Part shown: in pieces, positions 1,579 to 31,399 of the stretch
Layout: every line of letters begins with the position of its first letter
Position numbering within the stretch: the first letter of the stretch is position 1
From: Clostridiales bacterium
GTDB taxonomy: Bacteria > Bacillota > Clostridia > Lachnospirales > CAG-274
DNA length: 33,226 nt
NCBI GenBank assembly: GCA_021202835.1
Contig: JAJQCI010000255.1
Span: 2,185-35,410 of the forward strand
Reading direction: 5' to 3'
Notes under the pieces: generated by a model
Seen by the model: only the letters and a program-made list of their open reading frames with translations
Told to the model about the DNA's origin: nothing
Databases searched by the model: none
Position numbers and translations under genes: made by a program

Positions 1579-1884
1579 ATGGAGAAAATCAGAAAATATA
1601 TTATTGACGGCTGTGAGCTGGCCGTCCCGGTTTATTATGACGGGCTTTCCGGAAAGTATATCGAAGACTACAGCCGGTGGATTGAAAATCTTATTTACAC
1701 TCCCCGTGGTCATCCGGTTTTGGTTTCGTCTGAAGACGCCTGCAGATTTGCCGAAAGCCGTGACTCCGGCCCCTGTGTGGAGTGTGCCGGCTGCCGGTTT
1801 TACAAACGGGCGAGAAAAAACACACTTATAGGCATATGCCGAAACAAAAAACGGCAGTTAAAAGAAGCAGTGTGTGAATGTTAA
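1579..1884 (+). CDS. Small Cys-rich hypothetical protein (101 aa; CxxCxxC plus C-terminal CxC)
   Basis: Strong SD (GAAGGAGG) 6 nt before the ATG. It has eight Cys, including PCVECAGC and a terminal VCEC. I do not recognise a family. Confidence 0.7.
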   Translation: MEKIRKYIIDGCELAVPVYYDGLSGKYIEDYSRWIENLIYTPRGHPVLVSSEDACRFAESRDSGPCVECAGCRFYKRARKNTLIGICRNKKRQLKEAVCEC

Positions 1885-2251
1885 AAAGAAAGAAGGGATA
1901 AATTTTGGAATTTAGTTTTAAAAGAAACATTGTAAAAAGGCTTGTGAGCCTTATTTCGGCGGCGGCCGTAATGGCTTCGGGGGGGGCTTTCAGCTCCTGA
2001 CGGTTCCTACGTTTGCGGCGTCAACAACAACGGCGGCCGGATCTTTTATTATTACCGGCGACACCGGCGGCTACAGCTATGACAGTGACAGCGATGTTCT
2101 GACAATAAGCTCCGCCGGCAGCTACACGATAGCTGGAAGTTCATCGTCAGACAGAATTGTTATAGATTCAAGCGGCGATGTAGAGCTGACACTGAAAAGC
2201 AGTACCATAATAAGCACAACCGAATCGCCTATAAGCGCAGACAACGGCAAT

Positions 2252-5200
2252 TTGACGCTTATAATCAGCGGCAGTGTCAACCTTGCGTCAACAGCTGAAA
2301 ATTATGCGGCGATTTCAAAGGGGACGTCAAATACTCTTAAAATAACAAGTATTGACGGCGACGGCGCCACAACAGGCTCCCTCACGGCAACAGGCGGCAA
2401 GAATGCAGCGGCCATAGGCGGCGATTATAATAAACCCGGCAACAATATAACCATTGCCGGCGGAACCATAACCGCAGAAGGCAGCGGAAGCGGCGCAGGA
2501 ATCGGCGGCGGCATATATCAAGGCGGCAGCAATATAACAATAACAGGCGGAGACGTTGCCGCTTTATCATCCGATATGGGCGCAGGAATCGGCGGCGGTC
2601 AGGCCAGCGACGGAACCTCAGCCGGCAGTGATATTACAATATCCGGCGGAATCGTTAGCGCTTCAAGCTCTTCAGGCGCAGGCATAGGCGGCGGCTACAG
2701 CTCAAAAGGCGCAAGCACCGGCAGCAATATAGTAATATCCGGCGGCACTGTAACGGCAAAAAGCTCAAACGGCGCAGGCATAGGCAGCGGCGGAAACTCC
2801 AACACTGAGGAAAGCTGCAGCTCTTCCGCAAGCGGCATAACAATCTCCGGCGGCACTGTAACAGCCACAAGTGAATCAGGCGCAGGAATCGGCGGCGGCT
2901 ACACAGTCAGCGGAACAACAGCAGCAAGCAATATAGTAATATACAAATCTTCCGTAAAGGCTTCTTCAACATCAGGCTCTTCCATAGGGGCTCAGCCTGT
3001 AAACAGCAGCGGAGAAAATGTATATTTATATGAATTCACTAACACAACAAAGGGAGAAGCCATAATTGTTGACGGTGAAACGGTAATTGACAGCGTTGTT
3101 TATCACTCAAGCAGTGATACATCCCAATATATCTATCTTCCTAAGGATTCCGCTACTGCTGTTTACGGCGGCAGCTATTATACTCTTTCATATTCTGAAG
3201 AGGACGGAACAGCCACATTTACAAAGACGGAAATAGATTCAATGGAAATACCCAATGCGGCGGCGCTTTCAGCTTTTGCTAAAATGGTAAACAACGGCAG
3301 CACCTCTTTAAAGGGAACGGTTACGGCGGATATCGATTTTTCGGGCTATTCCGATATGATAGGCTCGGAAAGCACCCCCTACGCAGGAGTCTTTGACGGC
3401 GGCGGCCATACCATTACGGTAGACTATGACATATCCTCCGGAACCAGAAATTCGGGCCTGTTCTCATATGCAGACGGCGGAACGGTTCAAGACCTTACGG
3501 TTGACGGAAGTATGGATTTCTCCGGCGACAGCGGTTATACAAATGTAGGCGGCGTTGTGGGATATATGAATAACGGAACAATTTCAAACGTTGTTTCAAA
3601 GGTTAATATTACAAACACGGCGGATTGTCCTTTCGCCAGCGCAGGAGGAATCGTAGGGCGTTTATATGACAGCTCAACGGTTGAGGGCTGTGTTTATGAA
3701 GGCAGCCTGACGGCCTATAATTCGTGGGATTGTGTAGGCGGTATTGTGGGCTATACCAGACAGTACTGTACTATTAAAAACTGTGCAAATTTCGGCACAC
3801 TCTACGCCACAACGGGCACAAACTCAAGCAATGAGACAGTGGCTCCCTATTTGGGCGGCATAATAGGCTACATAAACAGCTCATATTTTTCCGGTATGGA
3901 AGGTTGCTATAATTACGGCAGTGTATCGGCAGACGATACAACATACTGCGGCGCAATTGTGGGCTGGCTCAGAAACTCATCGGATAATTTAACAAACAAC
4001 TGCTGGCTTAACACTTCGGCTGAAAAGGCCTACGGCGCAAACGACAACAGCCGTACAGAGCCGGATTCAAACACAGCCGATGAATTTGCAGGCGGCAAAG
4101 TCACTTACCTTTTAAACGGAAGCACAGACGGCGGCACAAGCTGGTATCAGAATTTGGACAACGGCGAAACGGCTGACAGCTATCCCGTTTTGAGTTCAGA
4201 CCACGGCACTGTTAATGAGGTATGCTATATATACTGCCCGGACTGCATTGTAGTGTTCTACAGCAATACGGAAAGCGGCACAACCGTAAAAGGCAGTGAA
4301 ACCAATCATACCTATGAAAACAGTGTCTGCATATACTGCGGCAATATGGAAGGAGAACTCAACACCGATAGTGAAGGCAGATATATAATACATGATGCGG
4401 CTACACTGAGTTCATTTGCGGCGGCGGTAAATTCAGGCTCGACAAGCATAAACGGTATTGTGACGGCCGATATCGATTTTACGGCCCGCAACTATATGAT
4501 AGGCTCAAGCACATATCCCTACGCCGGAACCTTTGACGGCGGCGGCCATACCATAAAGGTAGACTATGACATATCTTCGGGAACCGAAAACATAGGTCTG
4601 TTTTCATATATAGACGGCGGAACGGTTCAAAACCTTACGGTTGAGGGAAGTATGGATTTTTCCGGCGGCTCCGACTATACAAATGTAGGCGGCGTTGTGG
4701 GATATATGAATAACGGAACAATTTCAAACGTTGCTTCAAGTGTTAATATTACAAACACGGCCGATTATCCTCTTCACAGCGCAGGCGGAATCGTAGGGCG
4801 TCTTTATGACAGCTCAACGGTTGACAAATGTGTTTATGAGGGCAGCCTGACGGCCTATAAATCGTGGGATTGTGTAGGCGGTATTGTAGGCTATACCTAC
4901 ACAAACTGTACTATTACAAACTGCGCAAACTTAGGCACACTCTACGCCACAACGGGCACAAACTCAGACGGCGACTCTGTGGCTCCCTATTTGGGCGGCA
5001 TAATAGGCTACATAAACAGCGCATATTTTTCCGGTATGGAAAACTGCTATAATTACGGCAGCGTATCGGCAGACGACACAACCTACTGCGGAGCGATTGT
5101 AGGCTGGCTTAGAAATTCAAAGTCTGTTTTATCAAACAATTACTGGCTTGAAACCTCGGCAGAAAAGGCCTACGGCTCAAACACAAGCCAATACACTGTG

Positions 5201-8200
5201 ACAGTGCCCGATTCAAGTACGGCAGACGAGTTTGAAAGCGGCGAAATCGCTTATCTGTTAAACGGAAGCACAAGCGGCGGCACAACCTGGTATCAGACAT
5301 TAAGCAGTGACAGCTATCCTGTTCTCGACAGCGCTCACGGCATGGTTTACATGGAGGCAACAGTATACTGCCCCGACTGCTATGATATAACAGGCTATAA
5401 CAATACGGCAGAGGTATTAACGGCGGCCGAAGGCGGCAGCGTTGACGAACATACCTATGAAAACCATACGTGTATATACTGCGGCGCAATCGAAACTGCG
5501 GAGCCTGCTAAGGCAAGTGACGGATATTATGAAATATATACCGTGCCGGAGCTTTACTGGCTTGCCAATGCGGTTAATTCCTATTCCGAGACACCTGCGT
5601 CAGACTCAATTACCAATGATACATATTATGTAAGGCTTATGGCGGATATTGACCTGGACGGCCTTGAATGGACGCCTATAGGCTTTACGTCAACAAACAA
5701 CGGAGCGGCCTTATATTCCCAGTATTCTTATATAGGCACATTTGACGGAAACGGCCATGTAATCAAAAATATGTATGTTAACGGATACGGCAAAAATTAC
5801 GTGGGCTTTTTCGGCTCAATTCGTGACGGCGATATCAAAAATTTAGGTATTGTTGACAGCTGTGTAACCAATGCAGGCGGCAAGGTCGGCGGCATAGCCG
5901 GTTCACTTTACGGCGCAATGACAAACTGCTATTATACGGGTAAAGCAGAAGGCGGCGAATTTGTGGCAGGTTTGATAGGCTACCCAAGCACAGACGCAGT
6001 AATTAAATACTGCTACGCAAGAGCATCTGTTTCCTCCGACTCAAGCTATTGCGGAGCTCTTTTTACCACAATTATAAGCGGAATGAGCATATCAAACTGC
6101 TATTATGACAATTCGCTGGTCTCAAAGAGCGGAGGCTATGGCACAGGCTGCAGCTCAGAGGATTTTGAAAGCGGCAGGGTGGCCTACCTTCTAAACGGAA
6201 AGACAAGCGGCGGCACAACCTGGTATCAGAATTTGGACAACGGCGAACCGGTTGACAGCCAGCCTGTTCTGAGCTCAAGCCACGGCACGGTTTATTATTT
6301 CTCAAATTATTATTACTGCCCCGATTATAAAGTTTCTCTTTATACAAACGACGGAAGCAGTTCGGGAAATTCGGAAAGCCACACATATGACGACGACGGC
6401 ATTTGTGTTTACTGCGGAGGCGCTGAAGACGGCGTATTTGAAACCGATGAAGGCAGAGTAGTAATACCCGACGCAGAAACGTTATATAAATTCGCAAAAA
6501 CGGTAAATTACGGAAGTACAGCCTTAAACGCTATAGTAACGGCTGATATCGACTTCAGCAGCTATTCGGCTATGATAGGCTCGGAAGATCACCCCTACGC
6601 CGGAACCTTTGACGGCGGCGGATATGAAATAACAGTAGGCTATGACGTATCTTCGGGAACCGAAAATATAGGCCTGTTCTCATATGTAGACGGCGGAACG
6701 GTTCAAAACCTTAACGTCAGCGGAAGCATGACATTCTCAGGCGGCGGAGCGGACGGCGACGGCTATTCAAACGTAGGCGGCGTTGTGGGATATTTGACAA
6801 GCGGAACAATTTCAGATGTAACCTCAAGTGTTAACATTACGGCTTCGGCTGAATATCCTCTTCACAGCGCAGGCGGCATTGTAGGGCGTCTTTATCAAAC
6901 CTCCAACGTTAAAAACTGTATTTACTGCGGTAAATTAACGGCTTATGGATCGTGGGACGCTTTGGGCGGCATAGCAGGCTATACCTACCAATACTGTTCG
7001 ATTAAAAATTGTGCAAACTTAGGAACCCTTTACGCCACAAAGGGCACAAACGCTCCCTATTTGGGCGGTATACTGGGATATGTAAACAATACAGACTTCT
7101 ACGGTATACAAAACTGCTACAATTACGGCAGTGTTTCGGCAGACAGCACAACCTACTGCGGCGCTATCGTAGGCTGGCTGAGAGGGGCTTCAACGAACAT
7201 TTCAAACAATTACTGGCTTGACAGCTCGGCGACTAAGGCTTTCGGAACAAACGGCACAAGCAATACGGCTCCTTCCGCAAATACGGCAGACGAGTTTGAA
7301 AGCGGCGAAGTGACTTATCTGTTAAACGAAAACTCAAGCGGCAGTACAAGCTGGTATCAGAATATAGACAACGGCGAAACGGCCGACAGTTATCCTGTTC
7401 TCGATACGGCTCACGGTTTGGTTTATTATATCGCAGGTTATTATTACTGCCCCGACTGTCAGGACGAATATTATTCGAATGATGAAAACGCCGCAGGAAA
7501 TACAGAAAGCCATACATATAAAAACAGCGTTTGTATTTACTGCGGAGCCGTTGATTCAAGCGAATTTACAACAGACGAAAGCGACAGAATAATAATACCC
7601 GACGCTGAAACATTATATAAATTCGCAAGCACGGTAAATGCAGGAGAAACAGCCTTAAACGCCATAGTAACGGCTGATATAAATTTCAGTGATTATACGG
7701 TTATGATAGGCTCAAGCTCATATCCCTACACAGGAACCTTTGACGGCGGCGGCTATACAATAACAGTAGGCTATAACCTGACCTCCGCCGCAAACAATAT
7801 AGGTTTGTTCTCATATATAAACGGCGGAACGGCTCAGAACCTTAACGTTGAAGGTACTATGGATTTTTCAGGCGGCAGCTATGAAAACGTAGGCGGCGTT
7901 ATAGGATATATGAACAACGGAACAATTTCAAATGTTGTTTCGGGGGTTGATATTACAGGGCCGACAGGCTATTCTCTCGGCAGTGCGGCAGGTATAGTAG
8001 GGCGCTTGTATGACAAATCCACAGTTGACAAGTGTATCTATACAGGCAAATTTACAGCCACCGATTCAAATGACTGTTTGGGCGGTATTGTAGGCTATAC
8101 CAGACAGTCCTGCTCTATAACAAACTGTGCAAACTTAGGTACGCTCTACGCTACAACAAAGGGCTCAACTGCTCCTTATTTAGGCGGAATTATAGGCTAT

Positions 8201-10516
8201 ATAAACCACTCAACCTTTGTGGGCCTTGAAAACTGTTATAATTACGGAACAGTAGAAGCAGACGATACAACCTACTGCGGAGCTATTGTAGGCTGGCTGA
8301 GAAATTCAAATGATGTTTTATCAAATAACTACTGGCTTGAAACCTCGGCCACAAAGGCCTACGGCGCAAACGACAAGAATCGTACCGCACCCGACTCAAG
8401 CACGGCAGACGACTTCGCAGGAGGCAAGATTGCTTATCTGTTAAACGGAAGCACAAGCGGCGGAACAACATGGTATCAGAACATAGACAACAGTGAAACA
8501 GCCGACGGCTATCCTCTTCTCGACAGCTCCCACGGCACGGTTTACTATGTTGCCGAAGTTGTATACTGCCCGGACTGTACTGAAGCAGGCTATAGCAATA
8601 CGGAAACAGATTATATAGTAAGAGGAAGCGAAACAGACCACAGCTATTCGGGCGGTGTATGTGAATACTGCGGCGCTGCAGATTCAAGCTTACTTGCAAC
8701 AGACAGCGAAGGCAGATATATAATACCCGATGCACCTACACTTGCGGCCTTTGCCACAACAGTAAATTCAGGCTCAACAGGTATAAGCGGTATCGTAACC
8801 GCTGATATCGACTTCACAGGCTATTCTGTTATGATAGGCTCGGAAAGCAAACCCTACGCCGGAACCTTTGACGGCGGCGGATATACAATAACCCTTGGCT
8901 ATAACATAACCTCGGGCACAAGCAATATAGGCCTGTTCTCATATATAAACGGCGGAACGGTTAAAAACTTTAACCTTGAGGGATATATAGACTTTACAAA
9001 TGCGCCCAAGGGCGATCAGAGCGACGGCGGCTATACAAAGGTAGGAAGCGTTACGGGATATTTGAGAAACGGATCGATTTCAAATATTGTTTCCAGCGTA
9101 GATATTACGTCCTCCAAAACCTATCCCCTTCACCTTACCGGCGGTATCGCAGGCGATCTCTATGAAGAAGCAAGAATTGACAAGTGTATATACAAGGGTA
9201 ATCTGACAGCATATAACTCATATGACGCTTTGGGCGGAATTGCAGGATATGTAAGACGTGCCGGTATTACAAACTCGGCGAATTTAGGCACTCTTTACGC
9301 CACAGCAGGTACTTATGCACCTTATATGGGCGGTATATTCGGCTATGTAAACAGCACAGCCTTCTACGGCATGGAAAACTGTTATAACTACGGAGACGTT
9401 TTGGCATACAATTCAGACGGAACCGCAAAGGCCGAAACCTACTGCGGAGCCATTGCAGGATATATTAAGAGCTGCTCCCTTTATATAACAGACAACTATT
9501 GGCTTGACACCTCGGCATCAAAGGCCTTCGGAACAAACGGCTCAAACAATATTGCCCCCGAATCAAGCACGGCGGCTCAGTTTGAAAGCGGCGAAATAGC
9601 TTATCTCTTAAATGAAAGCGTAAGCGGCGGCACAACATGGTATCAGACAATAGGCACCGACAGCTATCCTCTTCTTGACAGCTCTCACAGTTTGGTTTAT
9701 ATCACAGCCACTGTATACTGCCCCGATTCAAAAGACATAAGCGGCTATAACAATTCGGCGGACGAAATAACAGTTGTCGGCAGTGAGACAGAACACAGTT
9801 ACAACGACAACGGCGTATGTATTTACTGTCACTCTGTTAAGGCGGAAGAGCCTTCCACAGCGTCTGACGGCTATTATGAAATAGAAAATGCGGCTCAGCT
9901 TTACTGGCTTGCGGAACAGGTTAACCAATATGCCAATGAGGATAAGTCTTCAAGCGATACACAGAACTATTACTTTGTAAGGCTTGTTAATGACATAGAC
10001 TTAGACGGCATAGACTGGACGCCTATAGGATATACAGAATATAAAAACGGATATAACTATTATTATGCATATTCCTTCATAGGTATATTTGACGGAAACG
10101 GCCACGTAATTAAAAACATGACAGTCAACACGGGAACCTACGGCTATGCGGGACTTTTCGGAAGTGTAGTATATTCAGGTTCGACCATTAAGAATCTGGG
10201 TGTTGTTGATTCCACAGTATACGGCGGCGGAAACAATATCGGCGGTATTGTAGGCAGACTGGGCGACTCCACTTCAATGACAAACTGTTACTTTACCGGA
10301 ACGGCAGAGGGCTACAAATATGTAGGCGGCTTAACAGGCTGGTCAAGCGCCGCAATTACAAACTGCTGGGCAAGCGCAGACGTAACAGGCTCAGTATCAC
10401 CTGTTTATGCACTTATAGGAACGGATTCAAGCTCTGTAAGCGTTACAAACTGCTATTATGACAGCTCAAAGACAAGTGCTGCAGACAGCAAGAGCCACAG
10501 CCTGCACAGCGGCTGA
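2252..10516 (+). CDS. Main body of the giant repeat protein (ORF-track segment; the frame is actually open from 1922)
   Basis: 2754-aa ORF. The N-terminal head carries ITISGGTVTA..GAGIGGG repeats. Seven super-repeats follow, with GLUG-like motifs (NVGGVVGY, SAGGIVGR, CVGGIVGY, YLGGIIGY, YCGAIVGW) and the DIDF/DIDL..FDGGGH(T/Y)I entry motif typical of GLUG-domain surface proteins. Confidence 0.9.
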   Translation: MTLIISGSVNLASTAENYAAISKGTSNTLKITSIDGDGATTGSLTATGGKNAAAIGGDYNKPGNNITIAGGTITAEGSGSGAGIGGGIYQGGSNITITGGDVAALSSDMGAGIGGGQASDGTSAGSDITISGGIVSASSSSGAGIGGGYSSKGASTGSNIVISGGTVTAKSSNGAGIGSGGNSNTEESCSSSASGITISGGTVTATSESGAGIGGGYTVSGTTAASNIVIYKSSVKASSTSGSSIGAQPVNSSGENVYLYEFTNTTKGEAIIVDGETVIDSVVYHSSSDTSQYIYLPKDSATAVYGGSYYTLSYSEEDGTATFTKTEIDSMEIPNAAALSAFAKMVNNGSTSLKGTVTADIDFSGYSDMIGSESTPYAGVFDGGGHTITVDYDISSGTRNSGLFSYADGGTVQDLTVDGSMDFSGDSGYTNVGGVVGYMNNGTISNVVSKVNITNTADCPFASAGGIVGRLYDSSTVEGCVYEGSLTAYNSWDCVGGIVGYTRQYCTIKNCANFGTLYATTGTNSSNETVAPYLGGIIGYINSSYFSGMEGCYNYGSVSADDTTYCGAIVGWLRNSSDNLTNNCWLNTSAEKAYGANDNSRTEPDSNTADEFAGGKVTYLLNGSTDGGTSWYQNLDNGETADSYPVLSSDHGTVNEVCYIYCPDCIVVFYSNTESGTTVKGSETNHTYENSVCIYCGNMEGELNTDSEGRYIIHDAATLSSFAAAVNSGSTSINGIVTADIDFTARNYMIGSSTYPYAGTFDGGGHTIKVDYDISSGTENIGLFSYIDGGTVQNLTVEGSMDFSGGSDYTNVGGVVGYMNNGTISNVASSVNITNTADYPLHSAGGIVGRLYDSSTVDKCVYEGSLTAYKSWDCVGGIVGYTYTNCTITNCANLGTLYATTGTNSDGDSVAPYLGGIIGYINSAYFSGMENCYNYGSVSADDTTYCGAIVGWLRNSKSVLSNNYWLETSAEKAYGSNTSQYTVTVPDSSTADEFESGEIAYLLNGSTSGGTTWYQTLSSDSYPVLDSAHGMVYMEATVYCPDCYDITGYNNTAEVLTAAEGGSVDEHTYENHTCIYCGAIETAEPAKASDGYYEIYTVPELYWLANAVNSYSETPASDSITNDTYYVRLMADIDLDGLEWTPIGFTSTNNGAALYSQYSYIGTFDGNGHVIKNMYVNGYGKNYVGFFGSIRDGDIKNLGIVDSCVTNAGGKVGGIAGSLYGAMTNCYYTGKAEGGEFVAGLIGYPSTDAVIKYCYARASVSSDSSYCGALFTTIISGMSISNCYYDNSLVSKSGGYGTGCSSEDFESGRVAYLLNGKTSGGTTWYQNLDNGEPVDSQPVLSSSHGTVYYFSNYYYCPDYKVSLYTNDGSSSGNSESHTYDDDGICVYCGGAEDGVFETDEGRVVIPDAETLYKFAKTVNYGSTALNAIVTADIDFSSYSAMIGSEDHPYAGTFDGGGYEITVGYDVSSGTENIGLFSYVDGGTVQNLNVSGSMTFSGGGADGDGYSNVGGVVGYLTSGTISDVTSSVNITASAEYPLHSAGGIVGRLYQTSNVKNCIYCGKLTAYGSWDALGGIAGYTYQYCSIKNCANLGTLYATKGTNAPYLGGILGYVNNTDFYGIQNCYNYGSVSADSTTYCGAIVGWLRGASTNISNNYWLDSSATKAFGTNGTSNTAPSANTADEFESGEVTYLLNENSSGSTSWYQNIDNGETADSYPVLDTAHGLVYYIAGYYYCPDCQDEYYSNDENAAGNTESHTYKNSVCIYCGAVDSSEFTTDESDRIIIPDAETLYKFASTVNAGETALNAIVTADINFSDYTVMIGSSSYPYTGTFDGGGYTITVGYNLTSAANNIGLFSYINGGTAQNLNVEGTMDFSGGSYENVGGVIGYMNNGTISNVVSGVDITGPTGYSLGSAAGIVGRLYDKSTVDKCIYTGKFTATDSNDCLGGIVGYTRQSCSITNCANLGTLYATTKGSTAPYLGGIIGYINHSTFVGLENCYNYGTVEADDTTYCGAIVGWLRNSNDVLSNNYWLETSATKAYGANDKNRTAPDSSTADDFAGGKIAYLLNGSTSGGTTWYQNIDNSETADGYPLLDSSHGTVYYVAEVVYCPDCTEAGYSNTETDYIVRGSETDHSYSGGVCEYCGAADSSLLATDSEGRYIIPDAPTLAAFATTVNSGSTGISGIVTADIDFTGYSVMIGSESKPYAGTFDGGGYTITLGYNITSGTSNIGLFSYINGGTVKNFNLEGYIDFTNAPKGDQSDGGYTKVGSVTGYLRNGSISNIVSSVDITSSKTYPLHLTGGIAGDLYEEARIDKCIYKGNLTAYNSYDALGGIAGYVRRAGITNSANLGTLYATAGTYAPYMGGIFGYVNSTAFYGMENCYNYGDVLAYNSDGTAKAETYCGAIAGYIKSCSLYITDNYWLDTSASKAFGTNGSNNIAPESSTAAQFESGEIAYLLNESVSGGTTWYQTIGTDSYPLLDSSHSLVYITATVYCPDSKDISGYNNSADEITVVGSETEHSYNDNGVCIYCHSVKAEEPSTASDGYYEIENAAQLYWLAEQVNQYANEDKSSSDTQNYYFVRLVNDIDLDGIDWTPIGYTEYKNGYNYYYAYSFIGIFDGNGHVIKNMTVNTGTYGYAGLFGSVVYSGSTIKNLGVVDSTVYGGGNNIGGIVGRLGDSTSMTNCYFTGTAEGYKYVGGLTGWSSAAITNCWASADVTGSVSPVYALIGTDSSSVSVTNCYYDSSKTSAADSKSHSLHSG
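2396..2990 (+). repeat. About seven tandem G-rich ~28-35-aa coding repeats (beta-helix-like head)
   Basis: The unit (S/N)(N/D)ITI(S/T/A)GG(T/I/D)V(T/S/A)A.S..GAGIGGG recurs; the last copy is degenerate (SGSSIGAQP). Confidence 0.8.
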
Positions 10517-10640
10517 GTTCGAAAGCGGAAGCGTAACATGGCGCTTAAACGGAAGTGCAGAGGGAACCACATGGGTTCAGACACTGGGAACCGACAGCTA
10601 TCCCTCATTTGCGGCGTCAGACTCCGACAGGGCAAAGGTT
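3242..10640 (+). repeat. Seven coding super-repeats in the order A1-A2-B1-A3-A4-A5-B2
   Basis: Anchor-based boundaries are A1 3242-4381, A2 4382-5524, B1 5525-6457, A3 6458-7588, A4 7589-8716, A5 8717-9871 and B2 9872-~10640. Nucleotides 3541-3593 are identical to 4681-4733, a 53-nt perfect match at offset 1140. Confidence 0.85.
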
Positions 10641-11042
10641 GCTGAGATGACGAAGAACGGCAGTGCGGTTTATGCAAACGTTGTTTCGGAAGGCGTAGCT
10701 TTAAGCACAAGCGGCTCCGAGCTTCTGGGAATTATAATAGACACAGCTGTTTTCGGCGGAGACGGCGGCGAATATCTTAACGACGTCGGCGTTGTTATAG
10801 AAGGCACACTCTATCAGCTTGAAAACTACTATTATATTGACAGTGACGGAAATTATTCGGCATCAGCCACAGACGAGGCGTTCTTCCCCGTTGCAAGAGA
10901 TTCGTCAAGCAGCAGCGACAGCGTATCGGCAAGAGGAGAAGCCACAACATCGACGACAAACACAGCCGATGACGGTCTGCTCTATTTTGTAACCGAAGTG
11001 ACAGCGGGGCTTACTGTAAAAGAAGCCGCAGAAACAGAATAA
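10458..11042 (+). CDS. C-terminal fragment of the giant repeat protein in a shifted frame
   Basis: Residues TAAEFESGSVTWRLNGSAEGTTWVQTLGTDSYPSF are homologous to the motif that ends every upstream repeat (TADEFESGEIAYLLNGSTSGGTTWYQTLSSDSYPVL). The listed Met start is therefore an artefact of the frameshift. Confidence 0.7.
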   Translation: MTAQRQVLQTARATACTAAEFESGSVTWRLNGSAEGTTWVQTLGTDSYPSFAASDSDRAKVAEMTKNGSAVYANVVSEGVALSTSGSELLGIIIDTAVFGGDGGEYLNDVGVVIEGTLYQLENYYYIDSDGNYSASATDEAFFPVARDSSSSSDSVSARGEATTSTTNTADDGLLYFVTEVTAGLTVKEAAETE

Positions 11043-11057
11043 AGGAGGTCTTTCTGA

Positions 11058-11207
11058 ATGAAAAAAATATACATATCACCTAAAATCGAGATAACAAAAA
11101 TAAATTCGGAAGACCCGACGGCGGCTTTTGCAGCAGGAAACCACAATTCACTGGCTATGGTTAAAGCCAAGGATGTCAGTTCGGCAGCAAATATAATAAA
11201 CTATTAA
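11058..11207 (+). CDS. Unlisted small ORF, 49 aa (MKKIYISPKIEITKINSEDPTAAFAAGNHNSLAMVKAKDVSSAANIINY)
   Basis: Below the 60-aa cutoff of the ORF track. The SD AAAGGAGG (11041-11048) lies 9 nt before ATG 11058. The ORF stops at TAA 11205-11207 and a terminator follows at 11259-11286. Confidence 0.5.
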   Translation: MKKIYISPKIEITKINSEDPTAAFAAGNHNSLAMVKAKDVSSAANIINY

Positions 11208-11258
11208 TCCGGTTTTTTCCCCTTTCATATATTATAAGACGGAGCGGAGACGGCGCTT

Positions 11259-11286
11259 AAGAGCCGCTTCCGCTTTGCTCTTTTTT
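11259..11286 (+). terminator. Rho-independent terminator closing the giant-protein operon
   Basis: AAGAGC-cgcttccgcttt-GCTCTTTTTT (stem 11259-11264/11277-11282, T-run to 11286). Confidence 0.65.
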
Positions 11287-11330
11287 ATGACTGTCTTTTA
11301 AAGAGGGCAGTGTTTCTTAAAAAGTTGTGA

Positions 11331-11359
11331 TTGACAGTGGTTGTTTTGTATGATAATAT
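11331..11359 (+). promoter_or_regulatory. Strong sigma-A-type promoter with extended -10
   Basis: -35 TTGACA (11331-11336), 17-nt spacer, and TGa immediately before the -10 TAATAT (11354-11359). Confidence 0.6.
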
Positions 11360-11377
11360 AAAAACAGAGATTATTCG

Positions 11378-11414
11378 GAAATAACCGTATTATTTGGATA
11401 ATAACGGTTATTTC
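11378..11414 (+). promoter_or_regulatory. 16-bp leader hairpin between the promoter and the rnhA SD
   Basis: GAAATAACCGTATTAT-ttgg-ATAATA(A)CGGTTATTTC with one bulged A, followed by TTTGTATAT and then the SD AAGGAG at 11424-11429. Confidence 0.5.
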
Positions 11415-11896: not shown

Positions 11897-13110
11897 GAAG
11901 AGTTATTGTTATAGGGGGCGGAGCCTCGGGGATGCTTGCGGCAGGGGTCGCCGCCAAAGAGGGGAAGGAAGTTATACTTCTGGAAAAAAACAACAGGCTT
12001 GGCAAAAAGCTTTATATAACCGGAAAGGGCAGGTGTAACCTTACGAATTTTTCCGACGCAGAAAATCTTATTAAAAACACTGTTTCAAACCCTTATTTTT
12101 TATATTCGGCCTTTTATACCTTCGGAAGTGAGGATATTATGAAGCTGGTTGAGGATATGGGGGTTAAGCTTAAGGTTGAAAGAGGAAACAGGGTTTTCCC
12201 GAAATCAGACAAGTCATCGGATGTTATAAAGGCACTTTCAAGGTTTATGAATATAAACGGCGTCAAGGTTGTTTTAAACTGCCGAGTTAAAGGCTTTAAG
12301 GCCGAGGGCGGCGAAATCAGGGGGCTTATTACCTCAAAGGGAGAATTTGCCGCCGATTCATATATTTTGGCGACGGGAGGCTTTTCATATCCCTCCACAG
12401 GCTCAGAAGGGGAGGGCCACGGCTTTGCTTCAGCTCTGGGCCACAGTGTTACAAAGGTTTATCCCTCTCTTGTGGGGCTTAAGGCCGACGGCTTTTGCCG
12501 TGATTTGGCAGGGCTTACTCTTAAAAATATAGGAATAAAGGCCTGTGCCGGCGGCAAAAAGGTTTATGAAGACTTCGGCGAGCTTTTGTTTACCCATACG
12601 GGAGTCAGCGGACCGGTAATTTTGTCGGCAAGCCGTTATCTTACAAAGGAAATTAAAAACAAGCCCGAAATATATATAGATTTTAAGCCTGCACTTAGCG
12701 AAAGCGAGCTTAACAAGCGAATTCTCAGGGATTTCGAAGAGTTTAAAAACCGGGAGTTTAAAAATTCTCTCGATAAGCTTCTTCCTAAGGCGGTTATTCC
12801 CGTTGTTGTTAAAAAAACAGGCATAGACGAAAATAAACAGGTGAACTCGGTCAGCAGAGAGGAAAGAATCAGGCTTATAAAGGTTCTTAAAGAATTTAAG
12901 CTTAACATAACCGGTACGGAGGGCTTTAATCAGGCTGTCATAACCTGCGGAGGGGTTGATGTGAGAGAGATTGACCCTTCCACCATGAAATCAAAAATTA
13001 TTAATAACCTTTTGTTTGCAGGGGAAATTATAGATGTGGATGCCCTTACAGGGGGCTATAACCTTCAAATTGCCTTTTCAACAGGCTGTCTTGCCGGAAT
13101 AAATTCATAA
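11893..13110 (+). CDS. HI0933/BaiN-like NAD(P)/FAD-dependent flavoprotein
   Basis: N-terminal Rossmann motif VIVIGGGASGMLAAG. The central LATGGFSYPSTGSEGEGH and the C-terminal GGV...FAGEIIDVDALTGGYNLQIAFSTG are typical of this family. Its ATGA start overlaps the rnhA stop. Confidence 0.85.
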   Translation: MRRVIVIGGGASGMLAAGVAAKEGKEVILLEKNNRLGKKLYITGKGRCNLTNFSDAENLIKNTVSNPYFLYSAFYTFGSEDIMKLVEDMGVKLKVERGNRVFPKSDKSSDVIKALSRFMNINGVKVVLNCRVKGFKAEGGEIRGLITSKGEFAADSYILATGGFSYPSTGSEGEGHGFASALGHSVTKVYPSLVGLKADGFCRDLAGLTLKNIGIKACAGGKKVYEDFGELLFTHTGVSGPVILSASRYLTKEIKNKPEIYIDFKPALSESELNKRILRDFEEFKNREFKNSLDKLLPKAVIPVVVKKTGIDENKQVNSVSREERIRLIKVLKEFKLNITGTEGFNQAVITCGGVDVREIDPSTMKSKIINNLLFAGEIIDVDALTGGYNLQIAFSTGCLAGINS

Positions 13111-20427: not shown

Positions 20428-20446
20428 TAAAACCGAGGTGGTTTTT

Positions 20447-20914
20447 ATGACAAAGTGCAGAGTTTTGCTGTGGGTAATGATTATTGTTATGCTGTGTGTT
20501 ATTTTCGGCTTCTCGGCCCAGTCGGGGGAGTCGTCTGTTGCGCTTAGCAGCGCCGTTGCAAGTGAACAGCGTGTTTTAAACTCCAAATTCGCCGAGTGAG
20601 GAATTTCATATATAGACGATTTTATAAATAAACACTTAAGGTCTATGGCCCATTGCTTTCTATACCTTATACTTGCAATACTTGTTTTTACACAGTGCAG
20701 ACTTTATAAAGTAAAACCTCTTTGGGCTTTTGTTGTCGCTGTTGACTGTTGTCTTTTATACAGCCTGACTGACGAATTTCACCAAAGGTTTGTTGAGGGA
20801 AGAACCTCTTGTATCGGGGATGTCTGTGCCGACAGTTTAGGCGCCTGTATAGGGGCGGCACTGACACTTGTTTCGGAAAAGCTTTGCCGGTTATTTAAGG
20901 GAGCAGAAAAATGA
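20447..20914 (+). pseudogene. VanZ-like membrane protein interrupted by a single in-frame TGA (20597-20599)
   Basis: The N-terminal half LLWVMIIVMLCVIFGFSAQSGESSVALS and the C-terminal half LRSMAHCFLYLILAIL...DEFHQRFVEGRTSCIGDVCADSLGACIGA are the two conserved VanZ blocks. Both are in the same frame (20447 and 20645 are both 2 mod 3) with only the TGA between them. SD GAGGTG at 20435-20440. Confidence 0.7.
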
Positions 20915-28866: not shown

Positions 28867-28916
28867 TAATTACATGCAGTTTTTTGTGTAATTGTTTAAA
28901 GCGAAGCAATTACACA
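28867..28916 (+). promoter_or_regulatory. Leader element with mutually exclusive hairpins just upstream of the SD of the second giant gene
   Basis: TGTGTAATTG (28885-28894) is the perfect complement of CAATTACACA (28907-28916). It can alternatively pair with AATTACA at 28868-28874. The SD AAGGAGG at 28921-28927 follows. Confidence 0.4.
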
Positions 28917-28936
28917 ATGAAAGGAGGAAAAAACAA

Positions 28937-31399
28937 GTGAAGAAAGCTTTAAAAAGGGTTTTAAGTACGGTTCTGTCATCTGTAATGGTACTTTCCTGCG
29001 TCGCAGTTACAAATGTTACTTCCGTTTTGGCTTCAACCTACACCTACACCCCGTCGGCAAGCTCAGATACTCTTTATACCGGTGATTCGTTTACTTCGAT
29101 AAGCGGTATTTTGACAACAGCAATTGCGGCACCTTCCGCTACATTCAGTGATGGCGCTATCAGATTTAGCTACAGTAATACTTCAGCAAATCTGGTGGCA
29201 GACGGAACTACAACAACAGGTACAAATGTCAGACTGTTCATAGAAGCAACACCCAGTAAAACAGGTGAATTGACATTTACAACGTCAATCGGTACCTCCG
29301 GAAGGGATATTTATATTTTGGAAAAAACCGGTACCGGAGATACGACTGCAGACAAGACCGAAAATCCGGAAAAGTATTATGACACCTATACAGCTATAGC
29401 TCATGAAACTATCGGCTCCGGTTCGTCTACAACAATATCGGGTGAGGTTACAAAAGGCGTAACATATTATTATGCGTCAAAGGCAACAACGCCTAATGCA
29501 ACAGAAATCTCATTTACAGAAGCATTCGGTACATACACCTTCAGCGGAGATTACGGCAGCGGCAACAGCTATACGGATTCATTTACGCTGACTGATGAAG
29601 ACAACAACAGCTATACGGCTGAATATTCAGCGACTTCAGGCGGCTATGTTTTAACCATCAGCGATATATATGCCGACACATACGCAAAGGGCGACACCTT
29701 TACCGTAACAGCTCCCACAGGCTTTACCGCCAGCACGGACGTTCTTACTGTTGACACAATAACGGCTTCGGGCTCTACGGCAAAGGGCTATACCTATACG
29801 GCTTCATTCGTTGAAAGCCTTGCCTTTGCGCCTATAAGCTATACAACAGACTATACCTTTACAGGCAGCACGGCCGACAATGAATATACGGGAAATGTAA
29901 CGCTTACAAACAGCGCTAAGGCTATTTCTCTTTCAATTCCCGTTACGGCAGGAGAAAGCAGCTTCAGCTCCGACAAAACCCTCAGCAATGATCTTGTATT
30001 CGAAGAAGGCGACGAATATACTGTTTCAATAAGCGCAAGCGGCTATACTTCGGCAGGCAGCAGCACACTTACAATAGACAGTATTACGGCAGGTTCTTCT
30101 TCAAGCGATCCGACTCTTGTTTCATTCGACGGAACTATCTGTTATTTAAAGGACGAATTTGACTACAGTGTAAGCGCAGGTCTTACTGTTGACGGCCAGT
30201 CTGAATTTTCGTCTGACAGCTATTCCTTCGGAGACTTTACACTTACAAAGGACGGAACTGACTACACGGCTTCTGTTTCCGCAGTGGCCGGCAGTGACTC
30301 CGGAGTAGTTTATGTTTTGGAAGCGGATTTTACAGCGGCCAGAAATACCATAAGTGCAGGGGACACATTTACCCTGACGGTTCCCTCGGGCTATGACGGC
30401 CCCGACACTGTTACTGTTGAATCTGTTACCGAAACAAGCTTAGGCGTATATGATGTTGTTTTGGAGGATATTGCCTTAGAAACTCACATTACATATACAT
30501 ATAAGCCTTCGGCAAACGAGATGAGCCACAGCTATTCGTCAGGCTCTACCGTAGGCGGTATCGACACAACATACCTTGATATTAAGCCGGCCTCCGACAC
30601 AAAGGTTAAGGTATATTACAGCGGCTCATACTATTTCAGTGTTGAAAGCAGCACGATAGATTCCGACATGATTTTAAACGGCAGATATACGACTGCAACA
30701 GGCCTGAGAGTTCTCTATGCAATTACTCCCCAGATAACAGGCGACTTAACCGTTACAACAAATTCTTCATATACAGACGAAGGCGACGACGGCTATATTG
30801 CTGTTTTAAACAGTGACGGAAGCTATACTGTTTTAGGCGTAATAAGAGGCAGCTCATCCAACTACGAAAAGAACGTAACAGCTTCTGTTGAAGCAGGCAC
30901 AACATATTATTTTATTTCAGCAGGGTCAATCCCCGATTTATATTCGGTAACAATCGACCAGGCCGATTTAACAACAAAGGCATATACATTAACAGGCTCT
31001 TTGGGCAGTGATAATGAATATGACGGAGACTTTGCCGTTACAGGCAGCGACAGCTGTTATTACACAGCCACAGCCTACAAGGACAGCGGCTATTATACAA
31101 TTAATGCGGCGGCGGCTTTAAACGGCGGCTTAGACGGCTCGGAATTCTCAATAGATTATTCCGACTTCTATACAGCCGAACCCGAAACAGTGACGGCGGC
31201 TTATGACGACTCGGCCGACTCTTACACTCTGACAAGCGGCCTTGTTATTAAGGAAGCTTTCTCGGGAACATATACATATAATCCCGAAGTGACAGACACT
31301 GTATATTCAGCCGGAAGTGCTCTGCCTACAAATACAGACTATTTGACAGTGGTTGTAGGCGTGGACGATACATCGGGATATTCTTCAGCATATATATGA
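28937..31399 (+). CDS. Second giant surface protein, N-terminal segment (signal peptide plus D and S modules)
   Basis: GTG 28937 lies 9 nt after GGAGG and opens the signal peptide VKKALKRVLSTVLSSVMVLSCVAVTNVTSVLA/S. The protein is acidic and T/S/Y/G-rich, with repeated modules carrying the G(S/D)xNEY signature. The frame closes at TGA 31397-31399 in the middle of a module. Confidence 0.85.
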   Translation: MKKALKRVLSTVLSSVMVLSCVAVTNVTSVLASTYTYTPSASSDTLYTGDSFTSISGILTTAIAAPSATFSDGAIRFSYSNTSANLVADGTTTTGTNVRLFIEATPSKTGELTFTTSIGTSGRDIYILEKTGTGDTTADKTENPEKYYDTYTAIAHETIGSGSSTTISGEVTKGVTYYYASKATTPNATEISFTEAFGTYTFSGDYGSGNSYTDSFTLTDEDNNSYTAEYSATSGGYVLTISDIYADTYAKGDTFTVTAPTGFTASTDVLTVDTITASGSTAKGYTYTASFVESLAFAPISYTTDYTFTGSTADNEYTGNVTLTNSAKAISLSIPVTAGESSFSSDKTLSNDLVFEEGDEYTVSISASGYTSAGSSTLTIDSITAGSSSSDPTLVSFDGTICYLKDEFDYSVSAGLTVDGQSEFSSDSYSFGDFTLTKDGTDYTASVSAVAGSDSGVVYVLEADFTAARNTISAGDTFTLTVPSGYDGPDTVTVESVTETSLGVYDVVLEDIALETHITYTYKPSANEMSHSYSSGSTVGGIDTTYLDIKPASDTKVKVYYSGSYYFSVESSTIDSDMILNGRYTTATGLRVLYAITPQITGDLTVTTNSSYTDEGDDGYIAVLNSDGSYTVLGVIRGSSSNYEKNVTASVEAGTTYYFISAGSIPDLYSVTIDQADLTTKAYTLTGSLGSDNEYDGDFAVTGSDSCYYTATAYKDSGYYTINAAAALNGGLDGSEFSIDYSDFYTAEPETVTAAYDDSADSYTLTSGLVIKEAFSGTYTYNPEVTDTVYSAGSALPTNTDYLTVVVGVDDTSGYSSAYI

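Follow-up and report, generated by a model that had tools for sequence, protein, structure and literature searches.

An out-of-frame G8 tract in the signal-peptide region of a giant surface-protein gene of an uncultured Clostridiales bacterium: a candidate slippage-silenced adhesin

Homopolymer tracts in described adhesin and regulator genes

The study of homopolymer tracts in adhesin and regulator genes has revealed several ways in which bacteria turn surface proteins on and off. In Bifidobacterium breve UCC2003, the pilin genes bbr_0113ab and bbr_1889ab have been shown experimentally to be switched ON and OFF by replication slippage in a G tract, and the ON tract lengths were enriched in the mouse gut (PMC9187656). 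In Neisseria gonorrhoeae, an adhesin is switched on and off as a homo-guanine tract in the signal-peptide region of pilC shifts the reading frame (Jonsson et al. 1991, as summarised in PMC5354566). In Bordetella pertussis, a coding-region C6/C7 tract toggles the frame of bvgS, and phase variation is exerted through a regulator (PMC1891110). Finally, inlA of Listeria monocytogenes is recurrently inactivated in nature by a poly-A change from A7 to A6 as well as by other premature-stop alleles (PMC2831843).

Here, we have analysed a stretch of 33,226 nucleotides (the window) from the metagenome-assembled genome (MAG) of a Clostridiales bacterium, in which a G8 run parts a putative signal peptide from the body of a giant repeat protein. 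The B. breve pilin G tracts and the Neisseria pilC appear to be the closest precedents. As in our locus, the B. breve pilins belong to a Gram-positive commensal, a G tract parts the Sec-signal ORF from the body ORF of the cluster's first gene, a length change of -1+3n fuses the two ORFs, and the second ORF lacks its own translation start. An earlier note on this DNA, which had described such tracts as far better documented in other bacteria than in Clostridia, therefore played them down too strongly for Gram-positive gut bacteria, since B. breve has the same architecture (PMC9187656). There are also clear differences between the two models. The B. breve tracts are longer (~G10-G12) and conserved across strains and species, whereas ours is G8 and its orthologue has G3; the B. 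breve products are LPXTG pilins encoded in sortase-dependent clusters, whereas the window holds neither LPXTG nor sortase; and our case concerns a ~3000-aa GLUG/beta-helix repeat protein in a Clostridiales MAG, with a second frameshift. With pilC, our locus shares a poly-G run in the signal-peptide-coding region of an adhesin, but pilC comes from a Gram-negative pathogen, its switching has been measured, its product is ~110 kDa and it exists in two paralogous copies, whereas here we have a candidate switch only. The inlA gene likewise encodes a Gram-positive surface adhesin that is lost by both 5' slippage and ordinary lesions; it differs in having a poly-A tract, in encoding an LPXTG internalin and in having population genetics at hand. 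A homopolymer frameshift in the signal-peptide region of an adhesin gene is thus of a known kind, found here in an uncultured Clostridiales MAG, and its membership of the phase-variable class is not established.

The G8 tract and the gene it interrupts

The features around the tract are the following.

1905-2000, + strand: signal-peptide ORF, starting at a TTG preceded by GAAAGAAGGGAT, with 31 codons (MEFSFKRNIVKRLVSLISAAAVMASGGAFSS) closed by TGA 1998-2000; the start region and signal peptide are conserved in the sister orthologue
1979-1986, + strand: G8 homopolymer at the frame junction; G3 in the sister lineage, in-frame lengths 3, 6 and 9
1988-10516, + strand: giant surface-protein body, whose frame lies 2 nt downstream of (one base behind) that of the start codon, as defined by translation, Pfam and module map

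The coordinates given in the earlier note for the G8, TTG 1905, TGA 1998-2000, the frame open from 1922 and TTG 2252 all hold. The body frame, which has an offset of +2 from the frame of TTG 1905, runs from 1922 to TGA 10514-10516 (2864 codons plus the stop), and the earliest start codon that it could use is TTG 2252. Translation from TTG 1905 would stop after 31 codons, and because the body itself lacks both a start codon and an export signal, the protein would not be made from this sequence, which would represent an OFF allele. The G8 begins 74 nt past the start codon and occupies codons 25-27 of the putative signal peptide (judged by inspection and by its conservation in the sister orthologue), in the hydrophobic region and exactly at the frame junction. 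Such a run would be prone to slippage, and it is one base short of in-frame: one added G (G9) or the loss of two (G6) would rejoin the signal peptide to the body, with G9 giving a product that reads ...VMASGGGFQLLTVPTFAASTTT..., in the manner of known slipped-strand switches. In length and place, the tract agrees with what is expected of a mutable homopolymer (about 7 or more, in the 5' coding region or promoter), and its length decides between a truncated and a full-length frame of one gene. At eight bases, it stands at the short end of the tracts known to switch at useful rates. The interrupted form of the tract designated for reporter constructs is GGGAGGGG. We also considered an alternative genetic code in which TGA is read as sense, and rejected it: the frame past TGA 1998 is nonsense with more stops, and translation with table 11 gives the other genes normal lengths.

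The G8 is the only G/C run longer than 6 in the window (44% G+C), where we counted 26 runs of G5, one of G6, none of G7 and one of G8. Nevertheless, its existence alone is within expectation for dinucleotide-preserving shuffles, which give 1.45 G8/C8 runs per window and at least one such run in 59 of 100 shuffles. Real sequence is poorer in such runs than this model: only nine G/C runs of at least 8 were present in 1.35 Mb of fetched loci, and an under-representation of poly-G and poly-C in prokaryotic genes is reported as general (Orsi et al., PMC2831843). What gives the observation weight is thus the position of the tract rather than its existence, at a frame junction where the orthologue is continuous.

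The body matches the Pfam families GLUG (PF07581; E 7.9e-27, 92.2 bits against a cut-off of 20.5) and Beta_helix_3 (PF18889; 28.6 bits against 27). With both above the curated thresholds, and with a putative signal peptide at the N-terminus, the protein belongs with the GLUG/beta-helix surface proteins. An N-terminal beta-helix domain with GAGIGGG repeats is followed by seven GLUG-type modules in the order A A B A A A B, each of ~330-380 residues and 65-84% identical at the DNA level, and the body frame ends mid-module at its TGA. No LPXTG motif was found in the body or tail, no sortase among the window genes, and the Pfam scan gave no hit to an SLH or dockerin domain. A separate protein, P0004 (429 aa), which is 43% identical to the N-terminal beta-helix domain of the adhesin, ends in a dockerin (PF00404), which suggests that this domain family also occurs in cellulosome-associated proteins. 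For the annotation of MAGs, it is relevant that this one gene was deposited as two separate and seemingly unrelated proteins (2754 aa and 194 aa) and that its signal peptide was left out of the annotation.

Could the G8 be an error of sequencing or assembly? G homopolymers are the hardest sites to call, the lengths of G tracts in databases can differ from the true ones and Illumina artefacts occur at such tracts (PMC9187656), the organism was apparently at low coverage, as its Logan contigs are short fragments, and there are three frame breaks in 33 kb. Against this, the data are of short-read, SPAdes type: in related MAGs from this accession series, the contigs bear SPAdes-style names that include coverage values, from which the window is very probably a short-read assembly too, and its Logan matches come from a run of the same SRR152213xx series as these MAGs. 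Where the window overlaps independent Logan contigs of run SRR15221331 (9897-11382, 21041-26435 and 27115-28442, with the G tract and its surroundings, 1579-3300, outside the overlap), 8209 of 8209 bases agree, including 22 homopolymers of at least 6. In addition, the independent assembly shows precisely the same second break in the adhesin gene, at a place with no homopolymer, so the frame breaks in this gene are not assembler noise, and there is no repeat-induced ambiguity near the tract. Chimeric assembly through repeats was rejected, as the longest exact repeat is of ~58 nt and far from both lesions and the modules are only 65-84% identical. An error at the G8 is thus unlikely, and less likely than the earlier note allowed when it named homopolymer sequencing error as the alternative, given short-read-type data and full agreement outside the tract; we take the run as probably genuine.

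It would also be possible for the protein to be made despite the G8, at a low constitutive level, if RNA polymerase added a G or if the ribosome shifted by -1 on G_GGG_GGG to give ...ASGGGFQLL.... The shift needed is indeed -1, the run can formally be read as X_XXY_YYZ, on which tRNA-Gly would re-pair perfectly, and transcriptional slippage on homopolymers is established and has been discussed for G tracts (PMC9187656). Apart from the heptamer, however, the site does not resemble a programmed -1 frameshift: the downstream RNA folds no better than shuffles (MFE z-score 0.07), so there is no stimulatory structure, the site is not conserved, with orthologues in frame at G3, and the second frameshift would still truncate the product. 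We regard such non-standard decoding as very improbable.

The sister locus and its regulator tract

Three neighbours of the adhesin gene are needed for the comparison with relatives.

62-1273, + strand: LuxR/GerE-type transcriptional regulator, 403 aa, intact (Pfam GerE and HTH; 85% amino-acid identity to the sister regulator)
1579-1884, + strand: Cys-rich 101-aa ORF, conserved upstream partner of the adhesin, with its stop 20 nt before the adhesin start
11058-11207, + strand: small 49-aa ORF directly after the adhesin gene, which also follows the sister orthologue

A search with the G9-repaired N-terminus recovered a sister orthologue, P0001 (895 aa; 60% identity over 100% of the query), in which just one module parts the N-terminal domain from the C-terminal tail, both shared with the protein of the window. 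P0001 is unbroken at the junction (LNLSFKSTIIRRFLSLLSAAAVAVSGFQVLAVPVFA followed by ETAG..., also read as AAAVAVSGFQVLAVPVFA followed by ET) and keeps both the TTG start region and the xFA motif. Since the orthologue crosses the junction without a break and has G3 there, signal and body belong to one gene, in line with the continuous secreted protein, cleavage motif included, that had been predicted for G9 or G6. The DNA of the sister reads GGTTTC-GGG-CTTTCAG, as against GGCTTC-GGGGGGGG-CTTTCAG in the window. G3 is the sister, or ancestral, state; it was found in 10 of 10 sister contigs, which come from different sequencing runs. The in-frame lengths are hence 3, 6 and 9, and the G8 of the window is a lineage-specific, out-of-frame expansion that is one base short of G9. 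Between one and three glycines would seem to be tolerated in the hydrophobic core of the signal peptide, to judge from G3 in the sister and G9 here, and with this tolerance the tract could expand at that very place. The comparison of tract length with relatives, which the earlier note looked to, thus unites signal and body, but the only orthologous lineage has G3 and no long tract. The tract is not conserved, with no sign of selection keeping it long.

The window and the sister contig L001 share the gene order LuxR-type regulator, 101-aa ORF, adhesin and small ORF. The 101-aa ORF (with a CVECAGC motif) has a single relative, P0130 (82% identity), in a set of 5.8 billion proteins and matches neither a Pfam nor an NCBIfam family; this relative always lies directly upstream of the adhesin orthologue, as does the copy at 2517-2822 of L010. 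The 49-aa ORF was called at 1162-1311 of the Logan contig L002; in the sister contigs, which end within it, the called product is cut to 30 aa. Other searches for relatives returned little: a scan of GTDB reference genomes with the adhesin N-terminus found no relative, a scan of JGI metagenomes found distant paralogues only (at most 46% identity over partial segments), and the window proteins that we looked up each stand in a one-member cluster, making the species a singleton in a 15-billion-protein collection. Members of the RNase H cluster were considered as contigs of the same species and set aside, with ~85% DNA identity and a different upstream neighbour.

Upstream of the 101-aa ORF lie a 27-nt inverted repeat (1370-1396/1467-1493, 81% complementary, 70 nt apart), a perfect 13-nt palindrome (1479-1491/1500-1512) and a T9 run (1461-1469), which may be operator or promoter elements for the operon. 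As to an invertible promoter, the inverted repeats near 1370-1512 enclose only 70 nt, and the window has no recombinase gene.

The regulator of the window has no homopolymer at the site where its relatives carry a poly-C tract: it reads ACGCCGCCGGTT (~578-589, CCGCCG), and the alignment sets ENT--PPVY of the window against ENTL(P)PPVY of the sister, whose poly-C (~1517 in L010 coordinates) encodes L-P-P-P. The length of this tract varies among the sister contigs, being C9 in L001, L010 and L014-L016, C7 in L011, C6 in L012 and C10 in L013 and L017. With C6 or C9, the regulator is intact (404/405 aa), whereas with C7 or C10 it is frameshifted. Contigs that are otherwise nearly identical differ in it, as follows.

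L011 vs L012: C7 vs C6, 0 SNPs over 5605 nt
L013 vs L015/L016: C10 vs C9, 0 SNPs over 4.3 kb
L010 vs L011: C9 vs C7, 1 SNP over 5605 nt

This variation among contigs that differ by 0-1 SNPs demonstrates that homopolymer hypermutation is real in this locus family; polymorphism in tract length between near-identical contigs was seen for the regulator poly-C of the sister lineages only. The same site carries C9 in L022 (3289-3297, in frame) and C10 in L024 (2619-2628, frameshifted), from two more species. These sequences make the poly-C gene a strong candidate for phase variation of a regulator in uncultured Clostridiales, and its variable tract is much stronger evidence of contingency-type behaviour than the G8 itself. 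The best analogue of this C6/C7/C9/C10 tract is bvgS, with the differences that bvgS is a sensor kinase with established switching and an established regulon and that the window's own regulator has no tract.

Ordinary lesions also occur in the sister regulators. L001 has a nonsense codon, and in L013-L017 (DRR845xxx contigs) a 2-nt deletion relative to the SRR contigs turns CCGGGGGAGGCC into CCGGGGGGCC, creates a G6 and frameshifts the regulator; the same five contigs have A8 against A7 upstream of the regulator. These differences from the SRR contigs lie at ~915 and 1257 in L010 coordinates. The locus is knocked out time and again in nature, by mutations of the tract and by others.

Both orthologous lineages carry a single long G/C tract at this locus, the one in the regulator and the other in the adhesin signal peptide. 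One may speculate, tentatively and as something rather unlikely, that a hypermutable G/C tract resides in different genes in each lineage, the sister regulator (C6-C10) or, in the window's lineage, where the regulator would have lost its tract, the adhesin signal peptide, as a switch relocated within one locus. In Clostridia, phase variation is otherwise known mainly from invertible DNA, and if the relocation were true these would be, to our knowledge, among the first simple-repeat phase-variable loci described in this class. Separately, the Lachnospiraceae MAG contig L021 has an in-frame G10 (12868-12877). Lying right behind the signal-peptide part of a secreted 759-aa protein (MKKRMKQLLAMTLAASMVASLSVSALAEEGGGTEAE...), and ~1.6 kb downstream from a LuxR-type regulator homologue, it is a second long G tract beside a signal peptide in the neighbourhood of this regulator.

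The second frameshift and the state of the gene

The adhesin gene is broken a second time, near its 3' end.

10460-10503, + strand: second frameshift interval, located by three-frame translation and module alignment; repaired by -1 nt or +2 nt
10503-11042, + strand: detached conserved C-terminal domain of ~175 aa, in the start-codon frame; deposited as the 194-aa ORF 10458-11042

No homopolymer or tandem repeat is present at 10460-10503. Past the break, the start-codon frame carries on the module motif (TAAEFESGSVTWRLNGSAEGTTWVQTLGTDSYP...) and then the tail, up to the stop at 11040-11042. Once repaired, the junction aligns to residues 688-894 of P0001 in one HSP across the break (65% identity, E = 2e-72). 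The ~3000-aa surface protein of the earlier note is therefore one gene with a signal peptide, but this gene runs past 10516, in another frame, to 11042, which the note had missed. L002, an independent Logan assembly from run SRR15221331, is 100% identical to 9897-11382 of the window and has the same two overlapping ORFs; as it reproduces the second frameshift base for base, this frameshift is not an assembler artefact. The ~175-aa tail has no Pfam, NCBIfam or PDB sequence match; it ends P0001 and occurs in P0019, and for this conservation the loss of it probably matters.

With both lesions repaired, the gene would measure 9138 nt and encode 3045 aa, while G9 alone would give 2870 aa without the tail. 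Reversion of the tract would thus yield only a truncated product, and even at an ON length the second frameshift detaches the tail. Measured against its intact orthologues, the gene has two independent disabling lesions (the G8 and the break at 10460-10503), as a pseudogene would; with 2864 stop-free codons left, any decay is very recent.

Two other genes of the window are damaged as well. Another large repeat surface protein (28892-31399, an 835-aa ORF with signal peptide) ends at TGA 31397-31399 right after GCATATATATGA, which contains (AT)4; beyond this break (at about 31385-31399), the rest of the domain follows in another frame, as far as the window reaches (33226), collinear with an intact earlier copy of the domain. 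The frame would be restored by adding one AT unit or deleting 1 nt. A VanZ-like gene (20441-20914) has an in-frame TGA at 20597-20599 (...NSKFAE*GISYIDDF...), and only its C-terminal 89 aa are called as an ORF. The G8 is accordingly one of four disabling lesions in the window, all in accessory or surface genes, next to ~17 kb of intact housekeeping and polysaccharide-synthesis genes. The further decay of the gene that the earlier note had associated with a fixed pseudogene is in part what we see, through the frameshift at 10460-10503 together with the two lesions in other accessory genes.

How, then, should the slipped-strand ON/OFF switch proposed at the outset be viewed? In its full form, a functional contingency switch would exist as a mixture of G8 and G9 (or G6), of which the majority OFF form entered the assembly, and a G9 allele would encode a working adhesin, either because the 2870-aa protein works without its tail or because the 3' frameshift is a minority allele. 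The architecture is the same as in proven switches, the hypermutability of tracts has been shown in the regulator of the sister lineage, the 8.6-kb body frame is stop-free, so that the inactivation is recent, and long tracts occupy the regulator or the adhesin by lineage in a complementary pattern. Yet this pattern comes from two lineages only, the second frameshift is not at a repeat and stands in two independent assemblies, and the detached tail is conserved in P0001 and P0019 and so probably matters. Architecture and slippage in the sister regulator thus speak for the proposal, but since the G9 product would be without the conserved tail, this is no simple switch of an intact gene, and a functional switch is in our judgement possible but doubtful.

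The reading that we prefer, with a probability of roughly 55%, is a slippage-mediated silencing (an OFF allele) of an often-inactivated adhesin locus that is now starting to decay, rather than a cleanly reversible switch. Under this preferred reading, the length of the tract would vary within the species and silencing would have been selected. What counts against it is that the second frameshift and the two further lesions of the window also fit a plain decay without adaptive switching.

If the gene is only decaying, the case would show that a 5' homopolymer frameshift does not suffice to call phase variation unless the rest of the gene is checked. If the tract does switch, the control of surface adhesins by homopolymer contingency loci would extend to uncultured Clostridiales and, taken with the poly-C of the sister, one locus would be toggled at different levels in different lineages. 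This would bear on the surface variation of commensal anaerobes, for example in the escape from phage or immunity, or in changed adhesion.
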